This document shows, piece by piece, positions 18,253 to 23,368 of a DNA stretch of 64,000 bases (positions are counted from its first letter, which is position 1; each line of letters opens with the position of its first letter). The DNA is from an uncultured Gammaproteobacteria bacterium (GTDB lineage: Bacteria > Patescibacteriota > Microgenomatia > Levybacterales > UBA12049), in the NCBI GenBank assembly GCA_964553245.1, contig CAZKJM010000001.1, positions 209,806-273,805 on the forward strand, read 5' to 3'. Below the pieces are notes generated by a model, which saw only the letters and a program-made list of their open reading frames with translations, was not told the origin of the DNA and did not search any database. A program made the translations under genes and the position numbers.

Positions 18253-19146
18253 TTAATTATAATTAATTGGTCCTAATTTTATCTTATCATCCGGGTCGTC
18301 AATAAAATAATATAAAACTGTACCCACCTGTCTTCCATCAACTCTTTCGAGATATTTCATTACTTCGGGAGATCCACCCAAGTGTTTTCCTGTCCATTTT
18401 GCAGGACCCGCATCTCCGATTACAACCACCATTGCTTTACCATTTTGAGGATTAACGACAAGCATTTTTCTAAATTTAAAAAAATCAACGTATTCTTTTG
18501 GGTTATTGCTAAAGCCTGGAGCTAAAAATGTCTGAGTGGCAATATAATACTTTTCTCTTAAAGTATCTTTTTCCGTTAAGTCCGCATTTGGTTCTTTAAA
18601 ATACCCCCATGCTCCAAGTCCTGGCGCCATACCATAAGACCAGTATTTTTGGGCATCTTCCTCGTTTTGAAAATGAGTTGCCATAGTGTCTCCTGGAAAT
18701 CTTGCTAAATGTTGTTCCTGTCCTATTTTCCCGTAAACTGTATTTAATCTTATTCCCCTTAATTCCGGCGATAATTTCATCTTAAAATTGCGGGATAAAA
18801 TTTCTTCTATTTGTTTTTCTTCATTAGAAGTTAAGAATCTAAATTCTTTTGGTAAAAGTTGATAAAGATCGGAAACTAAAAAAACACTTTTATCTACTTC
18901 TTTTATTTTTTCCGTCGCAGCTGCATTTGGGATATGCCTTAAAAGTATTGGTGTTGTAAAAAGAAAAAAACCAACCAAAGATGATAACGCAACTTGTTTG
19001 GAGTTATTAAAAAACCATTCAAACGTACTTTTATGCTCGTTAAGAATCTTTTCCTGAAGATCTCTGCTTTGTTTTGACCATTTATTTCTTAAATGCTCAA
19101 AATGCGGTTTCTTAGGTGTACTTTTCCAAAGCTTTGTTAAATCCAT
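18253..19146 (-). CDS. membrane-anchored protein with C-terminal RlpA-like double-psi beta-barrel domain (putative lytic transglycosylase-like)
   Basis: One TM helix; C-terminal RKMLVVNPQNGKAMVVVIGDAGPA resembles the RlpA DPBB core (TKVRVTNLNNGRSVVVRINDRGPF). Confidence 0.4.
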   Translation of the reverse strand: MDLTKLWKSTPKKPHFEHLRNKWSKQSRDLQEKILNEHKSTFEWFFNNSKQVALSSLVGFFLFTTPILLRHIPNAAATEKIKEVDKSVFLVSDLYQLLPKEFRFLTSNEEKQIEEILSRNFKMKLSPELRGIRLNTVYGKIGQEQHLARFPGDTMATHFQNEEDAQKYWSYGMAPGLGAWGYFKEPNADLTEKDTLREKYYIATQTFLAPGFSNNPKEYVDFFKFRKMLVVNPQNGKAMVVVIGDAGPAKWTGKHLGGSPEVMKYLERVDGRQVGTVLYYFIDDPDDKIKLGPINYN

Positions 19147-19177: not shown

Positions 19178-21865
19178 CTAATTAGGGTAATGGCATTTTT
19201 TATATTTTTTGCCTGATCCACACCAGCAAGGATCATTTCTACCTAATTTCTTCTTCTCCTGTTCTTCTTTAATAGGTTTTTGTTTTCCTGTTCCACTTAC
19301 TTCAGAAGAAGGAGTATTAGTTTGCATATGTCTTGTTTGTTGAGGAAGATCAGGTTGCTGTTGTACTTGAACCCTGAATATTCTGTGAACAATTTCATCG
19401 TCAATTGCTGTAATTAGTTTTTCAAACATTGTGTATGCTTCATTCTTATATTCAACCAAAGGATCTTTTTGCCCATAGCCTCTTAATCCAATTCCCTGTC
19501 GTAAATTATCTACAGCGTCTAAATGATCCATCCATAAATTGTCTATAACCGAAAGAGTCACAAATCTTTCTATCTGACGCATTAAATCTTCCCCTAATTG
19601 ATTTATACGCATTTTATAAATATCAGCAGCAATGTTTTTTAGAAAATCAATTTTTGCATTTTGGTTTTCAAGTTGTTCAAGTTGCTTTACTATTTGATTT
19701 TTGGAATTATCATCAAAAGGAAGAATCGTGGAGAAACTATCAACTATTTTTTCGCTTATGCTTTTTTCCGGATTAAATTCTTCTACCAATGTAAGCATTA
19801 CTAAACTTGTTATACTTTCGTCTATTTTTTCTTTTATTTCTTTTCTCAGTTCTTCTGAATCACCTTGACCTGCCTCAAGTATTTTTTTTCTCCTTTGGTA
19901 AATAATTTCTCTTTGTTTATTTAAAACATCATCGTAATCAACCAAATGCTTCCTTATATCAAAGTTGTATCCCTCTACTTTTGTCTGTGCCTGCTCTATT
20001 GCCCTCGAAACAATCGGATGCTGCAGAGGAATATTTTCCGGCATATTAAATCTTGTCATAAGACCGGAAATTGTATCCCCTCCAAAAAGACGCATTATGT
20101 CATCATCTAAACCAACGTAAAATCTTGATGCACCAGGATCTCCCTGCCTTCCAGATCTTCCCCTTAACTGATTATCTATTCTTCTTGATTCATGACGTTC
20201 TGTTCCAATAACTAATAATCCCCCCAAGCTAAGTATTTCCTTGTGTCGTTTTTCCCAATTTTCCCATTCTTTTGATTCTTTTTTGCTACTTCCATCTTCA
20301 GTTTTAGGAGGCTCTCCTCCTAAAACAATATCTACCCCTCTTCCTGCCATATTTGTAGCAACAGTTACCGCTCCCTTTTCTCCAGCTTTAGCAATAATTT
20401 CTGCCTCTCTTTCGTGATTTTTTGCATTTAAGACTTCGTGATTTATTCCTCTTCTTTTTAATAGCTCTGATATTATTTCATTTTTTTCAATTGATGTAGT
20501 ACCAACTAAAACCGGTTGTCCTTTTTTGTATGCTTTTTCTATCTCATCTGCAACTGCTGTAAATTTTGCCCTGGATGTTTTGTAAATTGCATCGGGATAA
20601 TCTTTTCTAATCATTGGATTATTGGTTGGAATAACTACAACATCAAGTTTGTAAATCTTATTAAATTCTTCTGCTTCTGTAACTGCAGTTCCTGTCATTC
20701 CAGCTAGTTTTTCATACATTCTAAAATAATTCTGCAGAGAAACCGTAGCCATTGTTTTTGACTCTCTTTGAATAGTAACTCCTTCTTTTGCTTCTATTGC
20801 CTGATGCAACCCTTCGGATAATCTTCTTCCTGTCATTAAGCGACCAGTAAATTCATCGACCAGAATTACTTCGTTATCTTTAATAATGTAATCTTTTTCT
20901 TTATGAAATAATGTCCTAGCTTTTAAAGCAGCCTCTAGGTGATAAACTGTGTCAAAATCTTTTTCGTAAATTTCTGCTATTCCATATAATTTTTCAATTT
21001 TACTTATTCCATGCTCTGTTAAATGAGCTGTTCTTAGTTTCTCATCTATTTTATAATCAATTTCCGGGACTAATTTTTCTACTAATTTTGCGTATTCATA
21101 ATATTTTTGTGTTGGCGCCTCATCCGGAGCAGAAATTATATGAGGAGTTCTCGCTTCATCGATTAAAACAGAATCTACTTCATCAACAATTGCATAATAA
21201 TGTCCTCTTTGAACCATTGATTCCAAATCGGAAGCCATGTTATCTCTTAAATAATCAAAACCGAATTCTGAATTTATTCCATAAACTATATCTGCATTAT
21301 AAGCCTCTTTTCTTTCTACAGACTTGAGGTGTAAAAGCCTAGTATCACGCACGTCTTTATTGAGAAATTCCGGGTCATAAATAAATGATTCATCACTGAT
21401 TATTGATGCTACTTTTAAACCCAAGAAATTAAACACTGCTCCCATCCAACCCGCGTCTCTTCTTGCAAGATAATCATTAACGGTGACTAAATGTACGCTT
21501 TTTCCTGTAAGACTATTAAGATACAACGCCGGTACTGCTGACAATGTTTTTCCTTCCCCAGTTTTCTGTTCTGCTATTTTTCCATTAGCTAATGAAATTG
21601 CTGCCATTAGCTGAACGTCAAAATGTCTCTGGCCAATCGATCTTCTCGCTGCTTCCCTTACTAGAGCAAAAGCTTCCGGAAGTATTGAATCTAAAGTCTC
21701 TCCGCTTAATACTCTTTTTTTTAACTCTTCTGTTTTTTTGGGGAAAGCATCGTCTTTTAGTTTTTTAATTTTTTCCTCGAATGAATTAATCTCGTTAATG
21801 ATTGGTCTTAATTTATTTATTTCTTTTTCGTTGGAATCAAAGAATTTTCCAATAATTTTAAACAT
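19178..21865 (-). CDS. secA: preprotein translocase ATPase SecA
   Basis: 895 aa; N-terminal MFKIIGKFFDSNEKEINKL; DEAD-like motor motifs; C-terminal zinc-finger CWCGSGKKYKKCH. Confidence 0.95.
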   Translation of the reverse strand: MFKIIGKFFDSNEKEINKLRPIINEINSFEEKIKKLKDDAFPKKTEELKKRVLSGETLDSILPEAFALVREAARRSIGQRHFDVQLMAAISLANGKIAEQKTGEGKTLSAVPALYLNSLTGKSVHLVTVNDYLARRDAGWMGAVFNFLGLKVASIISDESFIYDPEFLNKDVRDTRLLHLKSVERKEAYNADIVYGINSEFGFDYLRDNMASDLESMVQRGHYYAIVDEVDSVLIDEARTPHIISAPDEAPTQKYYEYAKLVEKLVPEIDYKIDEKLRTAHLTEHGISKIEKLYGIAEIYEKDFDTVYHLEAALKARTLFHKEKDYIIKDNEVILVDEFTGRLMTGRRLSEGLHQAIEAKEGVTIQRESKTMATVSLQNYFRMYEKLAGMTGTAVTEAEEFNKIYKLDVVVIPTNNPMIRKDYPDAIYKTSRAKFTAVADEIEKAYKKGQPVLVGTTSIEKNEIISELLKRRGINHEVLNAKNHEREAEIIAKAGEKGAVTVATNMAGRGVDIVLGGEPPKTEDGSSKKESKEWENWEKRHKEILSLGGLLVIGTERHESRRIDNQLRGRSGRQGDPGASRFYVGLDDDIMRLFGGDTISGLMTRFNMPENIPLQHPIVSRAIEQAQTKVEGYNFDIRKHLVDYDDVLNKQREIIYQRRKKILEAGQGDSEELRKEIKEKIDESITSLVMLTLVEEFNPEKSISEKIVDSFSTILPFDDNSKNQIVKQLEQLENQNAKIDFLKNIAADIYKMRINQLGEDLMRQIERFVTLSVIDNLWMDHLDAVDNLRQGIGLRGYGQKDPLVEYKNEAYTMFEKLITAIDDEIVHRIFRVQVQQQPDLPQQTRHMQTNTPSSEVSGTGKQKPIKEEQEKKKLGRNDPCWCGSGKKYKKCHYPN

Positions 21866-21878
21866 AGGCTTATTTTAC

Positions 21879-21906
21879 CATAAAAATCCCGCCCATAACG
21901 GGCGGG
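21879..21906 (-). terminator. GC-rich hairpin (CCCGCCC-5-GGGCGGG) plus U-run, 12 nt upstream of secA ATG; terminator/attenuator-like
   Basis: Perfect 7-bp GC stem at 21888-21906 followed on the minus strand by UUUUUAU; unusual in AT-rich DNA. Confidence 0.5.
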
Positions 21907-21953
21907 ATTATTACCAACTGATCAATTGGTAAAGCTCCAAATTGCTTACCAAT

Positions 21954-21983
21954 TTACTTCTTCTTCTTCTTTTTCTTTGCCAT
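21954..21983 (-). other. candidate leader mini-ORF MAKKKKKKK upstream of secA
   Basis: GAGGAGGTGA SD 6 nt before ATG; codons ATG GCA AAG AAA AAG AAG AAG AAG AAG TAA; followed by the hairpin at 21925-21953 (ATTGGTAA...TTACCAAT). Confidence 0.4.
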
Positions 21984-22135
21984 GAAGAATCACCTCCTCA
22001 CTTTCTTGCCAAATTTTCAAAAAGAAAACGGGCAGTGATTGTTTTTATCGTGTATTAATTTTATTAGTTTGTCAAGATTTTTTCTTTGCTTCAAAGTTAT
22101 TAATTTGGATTGAAATAACAATAAAAATCAAAAAG

Positions 22136-23368
22136 CTATTTTTGAGGTTTTATTACTGTTTTATTAAGATATTTTTGTAAAACTTTTGGTATTAAAACAC
22201 TACCGTCTTCTTGTTGATTATTTTCCAAAATTGCAACTATTGGTCTTGTAGAGAAGGCTGTTCCGTTTAAGATATTTGCGTATTCTGTTTTATTATTTTC
22301 TCTGTATTTAATATTTAATCTTCTTGCCTGAAAATCAGTAGTTGTTGACGTAGAAGTTACTTCTCTGTATTTTTCTTCCGATGGAATCCATGCTTCCAAA
22401 TCATATTTTCTGGCTGCGGGAAAACCTAAATCACCTGTACACATTTTAACAACCTGATAAGGAATTTCTAGGCTTTGCAAAAGTTTTTCTTCCAAGGATA
22501 AAAGAAATTCGTGTTCCTTGTCATCCTCTCCCTGTTTTACAAATGAAACCATTTCAATTTTATCGAATTGGTGAGCTCTTAAAATCCCTCTTGTGTCCTT
22601 GCCATAACTTCCAGCTTCTCTTCTAAAGCAGGATGAAAAACCAACGTACCTCTTGGGTAATTCATCCAAATTTAAAACTTCATTTTTGTGCATTGGAACA
22701 ATTGATTGTTCCGAAGTACCAACCAAAACTAATCCGTCTTTTTCAAAAATGTACATATCCTCATCTCCGCCATCTTCCATATAGCCAAGTCCCCTCATTA
22801 CTTCTTCTTTTACTAAAACGGGGGGTAAAACAGGAACGAAGCCTTCTTTAATTAAAGTTTCAAATGCCAGTTGTTTTAATGCAAATTCCAAAAGAACCCC
22901 ATCTCCTTTTAAATAATAAAATCTAGATCCGGAAATCTTCGACGCCCTTTCAACGTCTATAATCCCTAACTTTTCCCCTATTGTTAAATGGTCCTCCGGG
23001 ATGAAATTAAACTTCTTGGGGGAACCTTCTTTTCTTAAAACTTCATTTTCCTTATCGTTTTTTCCAACTTTTACATCTTTTTTGGGAGGATTAGGAAGCT
23101 GAATGATTATTTTTTTAATATCCTCATTAAGCTCTGTTAATCTTTTCTCTTTTTTGTCCAGTTCTTCTTTTATCTTTTTTCCTTTTTCTACATCTCTTGC
23201 TTTTGCCGCAATGTTCCTTTCTTCTCTCAATCTTTGAACGTTGACATTCAAAGCCTTTTGCTCCTCATCAAGTTTTAAAAGGTTCTGAATACTAACGTTT
23301 ACTCCTTTATTTCTTGCGCCCTCTTCGACAATTTTTAAATTTTCCTTAATAAATTTAATGTCTAACAT
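22136..23368 (-). CDS. serS: seryl-tRNA synthetase
   Basis: N-terminal coiled-coil tRNA-binding arm; class II core with SSCFRREAGSYGKDTRG and FDKIEM motifs. Confidence 0.9.
   Translation of the reverse strand: MLDIKFIKENLKIVEEGARNKGVNVSIQNLLKLDEEQKALNVNVQRLREERNIAAKARDVEKGKKIKEELDKKEKRLTELNEDIKKIIIQLPNPPKKDVKVGKNDKENEVLRKEGSPKKFNFIPEDHLTIGEKLGIIDVERASKISGSRFYYLKGDGVLLEFALKQLAFETLIKEGFVPVLPPVLVKEEVMRGLGYMEDGGDEDMYIFEKDGLVLVGTSEQSIVPMHKNEVLNLDELPKRYVGFSSCFRREAGSYGKDTRGILRAHQFDKIEMVSFVKQGEDDKEHEFLLSLEEKLLQSLEIPYQVVKMCTGDLGFPAARKYDLEAWIPSEEKYREVTSTSTTTDFQARRLNIKYRENNKTEYANILNGTAFSTRPIVAILENNQQEDGSVLIPKVLQKYLNKTVIKPQK

Follow-up and report, generated by a model that had tools for sequence, protein, structure and literature searches.

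A candidate polylysine micro-gene between serS and secA in Levybacteria

The 270-nucleotide (nt) gap between serS and secA on a stretch of DNA from an uncultured bacterium (NCBI GenBank assembly GCA_964553245.1, contig CAZKJM010000001.1, positions 209,806 to 273,805; all 64,000 nt are referred to here as the window) holds a nine-codon open reading frame (ORF) for the peptide MAKKKKKKK, two hairpins that share an arm, and an intrinsic terminator. We consider it moderately probable that these elements make up a self-contained, unannotated micro-gene of a Levybacteria clade and not a leader of secA. On comparative sequence evidence, the ORF and hairpins form a conserved module in approximately 100 related Levybacteria loci, and the same comparisons demonstrate coding-type selection on the ORF, conserved promoter and terminator motifs, and covariation in the first hairpin. 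The peptide as the functional product, high expression, and the purposes of the alternative hairpins and of the palindrome within them are what we infer from these patterns. The original prediction had described the ORF with its Shine-Dalgarno (SD) sequence, a hairpin with a 13-nt loop, a GC-rich terminator and an SD-less secA, all of which are present on the minus strand. It had interpreted them as an attenuator-like leader in which translation of the ORF could control the terminator-like stem and hence secA.

Conservation and coding character of the mini-ORF

The window was assigned to the Levybacteria (Patescibacteria/Microgenomates) through SecA homologues, and an identical SecA protein was found on a 562-kb contig. 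In the public gene calls, the interval between serS and secA is left empty. Related loci were obtained in three ways: genome loci retrieved through SecA, a palindrome-anchored scan of metagenomes, and SecA relatives sampled independently. Among the matches listed, three of the six closest genome loci carry the module (L002, L003 and L006, with the peptides MAKKKKKKKK, MAKKRKKRK and MAKKKKKKRR, respectively), and the three without it (L004, L005 and L007) proceed from serS directly to a terminator, a promoter and secA. The metagenome scan returned at least 119 loci; approximately 96 of the 119 listed have a Lys/Arg-rich mini-ORF just 5' of the palindrome, and the remaining listed matches are unrelated coding-region matches or contig ends. 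Furthermore, the module was found in all seven SecA relatives (73-82% identity) sampled independently of the palindrome, one of which, truncated at a contig end, retains only the palindrome, the terminator and the promoter of secA. Every locus that includes flanking sequence has the module between serS and secA, at SerS identities to the window down to 39-44%. These loci are phylogenetically related, and the counts are not independent events. Conservation of the mini-ORF and hairpins upstream of secA, which the original prediction had named as a check, is thus borne out in about 100 related loci.

The mini-ORF (21983-21954; all module coordinates are our own count from the sequence, on the minus strand) was identified from the sequence and its homologues and reads ATG GCA, then the Lys codons AAG, AAA and five further AAG, then TAA. 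With seven consecutive Lys codons, it is the sole Lys/Arg-rich mini-ORF with an SD in the whole window. Its homologues, of which MAKKKKRKK, MAAKKKAKKAKKAKKK and MPVKKKVAAKKPAAKKTVKKAVKKTVKKTAAKKK are examples, consist of 60-90% Lys/Arg and range from 9 to 34 codons; length changes are in frame, and the longer versions occur in more distant lineages. Across 74 distinct ORF DNA sequences codon 2 is Ala or Pro in every case, the stop codons are TAA or TAG, and Arg codons number 48, against none for Glu, Asp, Gln or Ile and one for Asn. The start codon interchanges between ATG and GTG among loci. Besides Lys, the peptides contain Arg, Ala, Val, Thr, Gly or Pro, but no acidic residue. Since Lys-to-Glu and Lys-to-Arg changes are both single transitions, 48 Arg codons against no Glu codon point to selection. 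In addition, AAG makes up 66% of Lys codons in the mini-ORFs vs 17-19% in neighbouring genes, and because AAG is favoured over AAA, the A-runs are broken up and mostly stay at or below 6 nt. Selection at the amino-acid level is thus visible in the codon asymmetry, the in-frame indels, codon 2 and the reversed Lys codon bias, and the ribosome-binding site and start codon are retained as well (an SD upstream, with the ATG/GTG exchange). The codon pattern indicates selection on a polycationic peptide, beyond the mere presence of Lys codons. A single frameshifted copy was seen, in the metagenome locus L106, where a 1-nt deletion in an A-run yields MAKKRRRRNSW; this could be a sequencing error or a true slippage variant.

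The mini-ORF unit has its own conserved promoter. In a 71-locus alignment, the promoter takes the form ..TTTTGAAGC..N..CTTGACAA-N17-CAnnAT and is followed by a 5' untranslated region (UTR) of variable length and then by aaGGAGGTGA. In the window, the -35 box TTGACA (22075-22070), within the nearly invariant CTTGACAA, is followed 17 nt later by the -10 box CACGAT (22052-22047; consensus CAnnAT), and the spacing places a putative transcription start site at about 22040. The SD, GAGGAGGTGA (21999-21990), lies 6 nt 5' of the ATG, and its aaGGAGGTGA is kept in the 71 loci. Between the serS stop codon and the -35 box the alignment reveals a further conserved block of 60 nt, GATTTTT..CAATCYAAA..TTTTGAAGCAAAG (22135-22076), which contains no terminator-like hairpin and could be an UP-like or regulator site. 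The promoter TTGACA-17-CACGAT has no second copy in the window. Motif evidence gives the unit both a promoter and a terminator of its own.

The sequence GGAGGTGA is present only four times in the 64-kb window, and the HU gene is one of these places. That gene (Pfam Bac_DNA_binding; 37859-37587, minus strand) is preceded, in the region upstream to 37935, by a TTGACA-17-TATTGT promoter and by the SD GAGGAGGTGATTTAAATG. Like the HU gene, the mini-ORF has a full-length SD, and its expression signals fall into the same strong class, which suggests high expression.

The element matches no Rfam, Pfam or NCBIfam family and is undescribed in the literature searched. Searches of Pfam and NCBIfam with the longer peptide homologues gave no match, and literature searches on the polylysine peptide, on lysine-rich small proteins of Patescibacteria and on leaderless genes of the candidate phyla radiation (CPR) returned nothing relevant. 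At Rfam gathering thresholds there was no match in the region, the best sub-threshold scores being at most 27 bits against gathering scores of 41-100; a search at E <= 10 gave no family, with Trp, Phe and other leader models at chance-level scores.

Hairpins, terminator and the secA promoter

The region folds with a z-score of -4.1 and is more stable than all 200 shuffled sequences. Hairpin A (21953-21925) consists of the arm S1 ATTGGTAA, the apical part GCAATTTGGAGCT and the arm S2 TTACCAAT, with 13 nt between the arms, and in the window it begins 1 nt after the mini-ORF stop codon. The stop codon is at or next to the hairpin foot in most variants, and its last base pairs with S2 in about half. 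Among 57 distinct variants, compensatory changes (GC/AU and CG/UA) are seen at the inner pairs, and the basal pair, often formed with the last base of the stop codon, is A-U in 33, G.U in 8, G-C in 6 and A.C in none. In many lineages the apical part has been swapped for unrelated GC-rich stems. By this covariation, hairpin A is judged to be a genuine RNA structure.

Hairpin B is formed by a 22-nt near-palindrome, TTACCAATTGATCAGTTGGTAA (21932-21911), whose left arm is S2, so that S2 can pair either with S1 (hairpin A) or with S3 (hairpin B). This double role of TTACCAAT was missed in the original prediction, as was the extended -10 element TGGTAAAAT in front of secA. The palindrome occurs as a single copy per locus, and neither it nor the mini-ORF promoter motif recurs in the window. 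Its 18-mer core fits ACCAATTGATCARTTGGT in nine of the ten module-bearing loci retrieved via SecA; the tenth, L207, is off by one loop base. With its invariant sequence, hairpin B offers no covariation on its pairing, and in one variant class a C.A mismatch in it is combined with a retained G-C pair in hairpin A. S2 is duplicated in about 8% of loci, and L006 makes its hairpin A without S2, so the two hairpins exclude each other commonly but not universally.

The palindrome is followed by the intrinsic terminator T, AATCCCGCCC-gttat-GGGCGGGATT with a U run (21909-21882), which is the only terminator-like site in 21000-23000. In all 100 of the loci that extend far enough in the 3' direction, the palindrome is followed at once by a GC-rich hairpin with a U run, whose sequence differs each time. 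serS lacks its own terminator, and the motif predicts that T ends both the mini-ORF RNA and serS read-through.

Behind the terminator lies an extended -10 element of secA, TGGTAAAAT (21880-21872), which ends 6 nt before the ATG at 21865. The pattern TGnTAnnAT occurs between the terminator and the secA start in 98 of 100 loci, at a distance from the start codon of 6 nt in 40 loci (the modal value) and of 7-9 nt in 32. The same geometry precedes secA in Microgenomates loci that do not carry the module. The U tract of the terminator ends 3-20 nt before the extended -10 or overlaps it, and insertions of 120-400 nt separate the terminator from secA in L119, L154 and L196. The secA coding sequence (21865-19178, minus strand) was placed by Pfam, by alignment of its N-terminus with 24 homologues and by the promoter geometry, and its ATG has no SD. 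A -10 element about 6-8 nt upstream of an SD-less start is the arrangement of a leaderless transcript, and secA is probably translated from a leaderless messenger RNA (mRNA) that starts at or near A21865 from the extended -10, which would account for the missing SD.

This arrangement is not confined to secA. Other SD-less genes with TAnnAT or TGnTAnnAT 6-10 nt before the ATG are lysK (24916), recA (41319) and recX (39835), whose -10 boxes were judged by inspection, as well as rpoA (44758), rmuC (33140, plus strand), an AddA-like helicase gene (34162, plus strand) and the gene after secA (19146). Only about 19 of the 66 long ORFs in the window have even a weak SD. With so many SD-less, -10-adjacent starts, the lack of an SD at secA is ordinary for this genome, and leaderless initiation appears, from these start regions, to be a major mode in this Levybacterium.

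The effect of mini-ORF translation on the downstream RNA was modelled with partition functions for 90 loci. The modelled RNA began at the SD and stopped where the terminator stem ends; it was folded either on its own or with a mimicked ribosome at the stop, for which the bases from 15 nt before the stop codon to some 11 nt beyond it were held single-stranded. In free RNA the median probability of hairpin A was 0.92, and that of hairpin B rose from a median of 0.04 to 0.97 with the ribosome at the stop. The terminator stem had median probabilities of 0.94 free and 0.90 with the ribosome. In sequence, S3 is separate from the terminator stem; A and B exclude each other, and neither overlaps that stem. 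The same modelling found no antiterminator in any of the 90 loci. The claim that translation of the ORF remodels the RNA behind it is therefore upheld for the predicted flip from A to B and not for the terminator, which is essentially unchanged.

The micro-gene would accordingly consist of a sigma70-type promoter, TTGACA-17-CAnnAT, driving an RNA of about 160 nt, whose near-perfect SD would direct translation of the 9-codon ORF (9-34 codons in relatives) into a polycationic MAK7, the mature peptide probably being AKKKKKKK after removal of Met. The stop codon abuts hairpin A, and hairpin B, sharing S2, comes next; a ribosome at the stop would unzip S1 and leave S2 free to pair with S3, which would toggle the 3' UTR from A to B. 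The terminator is expected to form in either state and to end the micro-gene RNA together with serS read-through, and secA would be transcribed separately from the extended -10 right after the terminator, 6-9 nt before its AUG. The palindrome would most likely be a binding site or a stability element acting in cis on the micro-gene RNA.

Alternative readings and known systems

Several points weigh against a stand-alone micro-gene. Promoters, start sites and termination were assigned from motifs and thermodynamic models. The metagenome loci were collected through exact matches to the palindrome, whose invariance is thus partly ascertainment, checked only by the 10 unbiased loci. The predicted toggle is not uniform, as the window's own copy gives probabilities of 0.12 for A and 0.87 for B in free RNA, and the loci with a duplicated S2, together with the S2-free hairpin A of L006, mean that exclusivity is not essential. 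The module always adjoins secA, which is expected from synteny, yet also fits a cis-regulator. Finally, the best-conserved part is the palindrome in the 3' UTR and not the peptide, and the RNA could be the main functional entity.

This last point leads to a riboregulator, a reading that we regard as possible but unlikely. Here the functional molecule would be the RNA, as a small RNA (sRNA) or a protein-binding RNA with S2-loop-S3 as its binding or seed site; the poly-Lys ORF would merely report translation capacity or charging of Lys-tRNA, and the flip from A to B would expose or hide the invariant segment, in the manner of a dual-function or translation-gated sRNA. The palindrome and S1 are indeed better conserved than the length or sequence of the peptide, the stop codon is fixed at or beside the foot of hairpin A in most variants, and hairpin B rises upon ribosome occupancy in the model. 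Furthermore, the free state leaves about 15 nt (UGAUCARUUGGUAA) unpaired between the hairpin and the U-tailed terminator, the usual layout of an sRNA seed, and a class I lysyl-tRNA synthetase gene lies two genes upstream. However, Lys is replaced by Arg (48 codons) and not by Glu or Gln (none), a bias that a codon sensor does not need and which argues that charge matters. There is no target site elsewhere in the window and no partner protein was identified, and the switch is dispensable where S2 is duplicated or the hairpin lacks S1.

Dual-function sRNAs such as SgrS/SgrT, RNAIII/delta-haemolysin and SR1/SR1P offer the nearest comparison for an RNA of this kind. Like the module, they are short transcripts with their own promoter and terminator that combine a small translated ORF with a conserved, structured non-coding part. 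The module differs in that no base-pairing target was identified, that its ORF, at 9 codons, is much shorter and low in complexity, and that its conserved RNA part is the palindrome 3' of the ORF.

A reading that joins peptide and switch, which we hold to be quite unlikely, is that an abundant polylysine peptide binding nucleic acid or the ribosome is combined with a translation-gated mRNA switch, in which a ribosome arriving at the stop codon flips the invariant palindromic element. Together with termination right on the leaderless secA promoter, which has no -35 element, this flip would couple translation capacity or Lys-tRNA status to secA initiation through promoter occlusion or polymerase hand-over, and the unit, at 9 codons, would be among the shortest conserved protein-coding genes known. 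For the peptide, an analogy exists in eL41, Thx, mycobacterial bL37 and bS22, which are very small, highly basic, ribosome-bound proteins. The module resembles them in its tiny Lys/Arg-rich peptide starting with MAK or MPK and in its strong expression signals; its peptides are too short and too low in complexity for a test of homology, and placement on the ribosome is an analogy only.

The view of the original prediction or a variant of it, with the module regulating secA in cis, now appears decidedly improbable. It can take two forms: translation of the mini-ORF might tune read-through of the terminator into secA, or heavy transcription ending on the secA -10 might set initiation there, either by occluding the promoter or by handing over the polymerase after termination. 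In favour are the position of the U tract, 3-20 nt before the secA -10 or overlapping it, such that a terminating polymerase would occupy the secA promoter, the adjacency of module and secA in every locus with flanks, and a superficial likeness (leader ORF, Lys run, alternative hairpins, terminator) to amino-acid attenuators. Against it stand the lack of an antiterminator and a terminator probability that hardly responds to the ribosome (0.94 vs 0.90). In addition, secA retains a promoter of its own (98 of 100 loci, and also relatives lacking the module), a read-through mRNA would hold an internal SD-less AUG that is poorly translated, the 120-400-nt insertions in L119, L154 and L196 are tolerated, lysine supply and SecA have no functional link, and the ORF is too short, and has no signal sequence, for a SecM-like secretion monitor.

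Comparison with classical leader-peptide attenuators leads to the same result. In Enterobacteria, hisL, pheL, trpL and thrL are the leader-peptide attenuators of amino-acid operons. They share with the module a short ORF with a codon run for one amino acid (here seven Lys), alternative hairpins that share an arm (1:2 vs 2:3), and a subsequent GC-rich terminator with a U tract between ORF and gene. In the module, however, the 2:3 structure is clear of the terminator, nothing can antiterminate, and no structure exclusive with the terminator is chosen by the position of the ribosome; the downstream gene, which is unrelated to lysine, has its own promoter on motif evidence (TGnTAnnAT in 98 of 100 loci); and the charge of the peptide is selected, whereas sensor peptides show no such selection. 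The attenuator interpretation fails because there is no antiterminator and secA is not promoter-less. Nor did the idea that ORF and hairpins form a secA leader survive, as the ORF unit has its own conserved promoter and relatives that do not have the module keep the secA layout. A secA mRNA starting downstream of the hairpin from its own promoter, the observation that the original prediction had named as contradicting it, is what the in silico evidence indicates.

Two other translation-dependent systems were considered. In the translational attenuation of ermC and cat, a ribosome on segment 1 frees segment 2 to pair with segment 3, as modelled for the module; the module differs in having no segment 4 and no downstream SD or AUG to be released, secA being SD-less and a terminator intervening. 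The arrest peptides SecM (secM-secA), MifM (mifM-yidC2) and VemP (vemP-secDF2) monitor secretion through a signal or transmembrane segment and a C-terminal arrest motif, and unmask a downstream SD on the same mRNA. Like them, the module places an ORF directly in front of a gene of the Sec pathway. The module differs by its 9-residue Lys-rich peptide with no export signal (the 9-34-residue peptides of K, R, A, V, T, G and P contain no hydrophobic segment) and by the terminator and leaderless promoter that precede secA, so that arrest could not expose the SD of a sec gene on the same mRNA.

It is very unlikely that the palindrome TTACCAATTGATCARTTGGTAA acts on DNA, as the operator or roadblock of a dimeric regulator or as a dif-like recombinase site, with the hairpins incidental. 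The site is a perfect or near-perfect, invariant repeat of 18-22 bp with one copy per locus, and its asymmetric position is found in both orientations (T..G and C..A), which are one site on DNA and U.G vs C.A on RNA. However, its distance to the secA -10 varies from 42 to 107 bp and that to the mini-ORF promoter is also variable, no regulator gene adjoins it, S1:S2 pairing covaries as RNA, and the loop change from A to G in L207 retains a U.G pair. GC skew is monotonic through the locus, so there is no terminus or dif position. A dif/terminus site and a fixed-distance operator of the secA promoter were rejected as candidates on the skew and the 42-107 bp spacing, respectively.

A chance combination of a fortuitous short ORF with an ordinary serS terminator has next to no probability: the terminator does serve serS, which is otherwise terminator-less, but the comparative data refute the idea, with ORF, SD, promoter and hairpins kept across about 100 loci despite SerS identities of 39-44% and with evident selection at the codon level.

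Further candidate features within the module were tried and rejected. A second ORF in hairpin B (TTG ATC ARU UGG UAA) and a TTG-started ORF through hairpin A keep neither frame nor stop across variants. A CsrA-type motif (GGA in the hairpin A loop) fails since the loop is swapped in many lineages, and an Hfq-type motif (ARN repeats in the ORF) is interrupted by GCN, GTN and CCN codons. Ten nucleotides of hairpin B, UCAGUUGGUA (21921-21912, minus strand), are identical to what we take to be the canonical D-loop motif of transfer RNA (tRNA), and the variant AUCAAUUGGU, with A for G21918 (e.g., in L002), presumably agrees with a stretch of E. coli tRNA-Lys. A tRNA-like fold was looked for and not found: ARAGORN gave no tRNA-like element at the module, the Rfam tRNA model had no match there, and no tRNA-Lys gene was available for comparison among 60 related loci.

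Neighbouring genes and significance of the micro-gene

The order on the minus strand is class I lysyl-tRNA synthetase (lysK, 24916-23420; Pfam tRNA-synt_1f), serS (23368-22136, with its stop codon at 22138-22136), the gap and secA. The lysyl-tRNA synthetase gene is thus two genes upstream of the polylysine ORF. Directly 3' of secA is a 297-amino-acid ORF (18253-19146, minus strand) with a leaderless-type start, TGTTAAGAT followed after 10 nt by ATG, and it has no Pfam match.

Two further elements in the window recall the features discussed here. Upstream of greA (27214-26744, minus strand), the segment 27312-27215 holds a TTGACA-17-TATCAT promoter and, behind it, a 5' UTR with a terminator-like hairpin, TCCCTC-aaaaatt-GGAGGGA, and a U run; the motif ACTGCCC is common to this 5' UTR and that of the mini-ORF. 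GraL is a premature-termination leader of E. coli greA, and by analogy the hairpin resembles it. Between tuf (60254-59073) and rplC (58468-57584), the segment 58600-58470 on the minus strand holds GGAGGTGA and then the terminator-like hairpin AGCGACT-tgaatgt-AGTCGCT with a T run; lying just before the L3 gene, it could be a transcript end of the rpsJ region or a leader.

In these genomes, SD-less genes that directly follow a terminator are best interpreted as leaderless transcription units and not as attenuated ones, which affects the annotation of CPR operons and the view of their regulation. Gene callers miss genes of 9-34 codons, and the element described here is an unannotated, strongly conserved micro-gene candidate in minimal-genome Patescibacteria, where each conserved element likely matters. 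An encoded oligolysine with a promoter and SD of the HU class would represent a novel type of small cationic constituent of the cell, and the invariant 3' palindrome is a candidate RNA or DNA recognition element.

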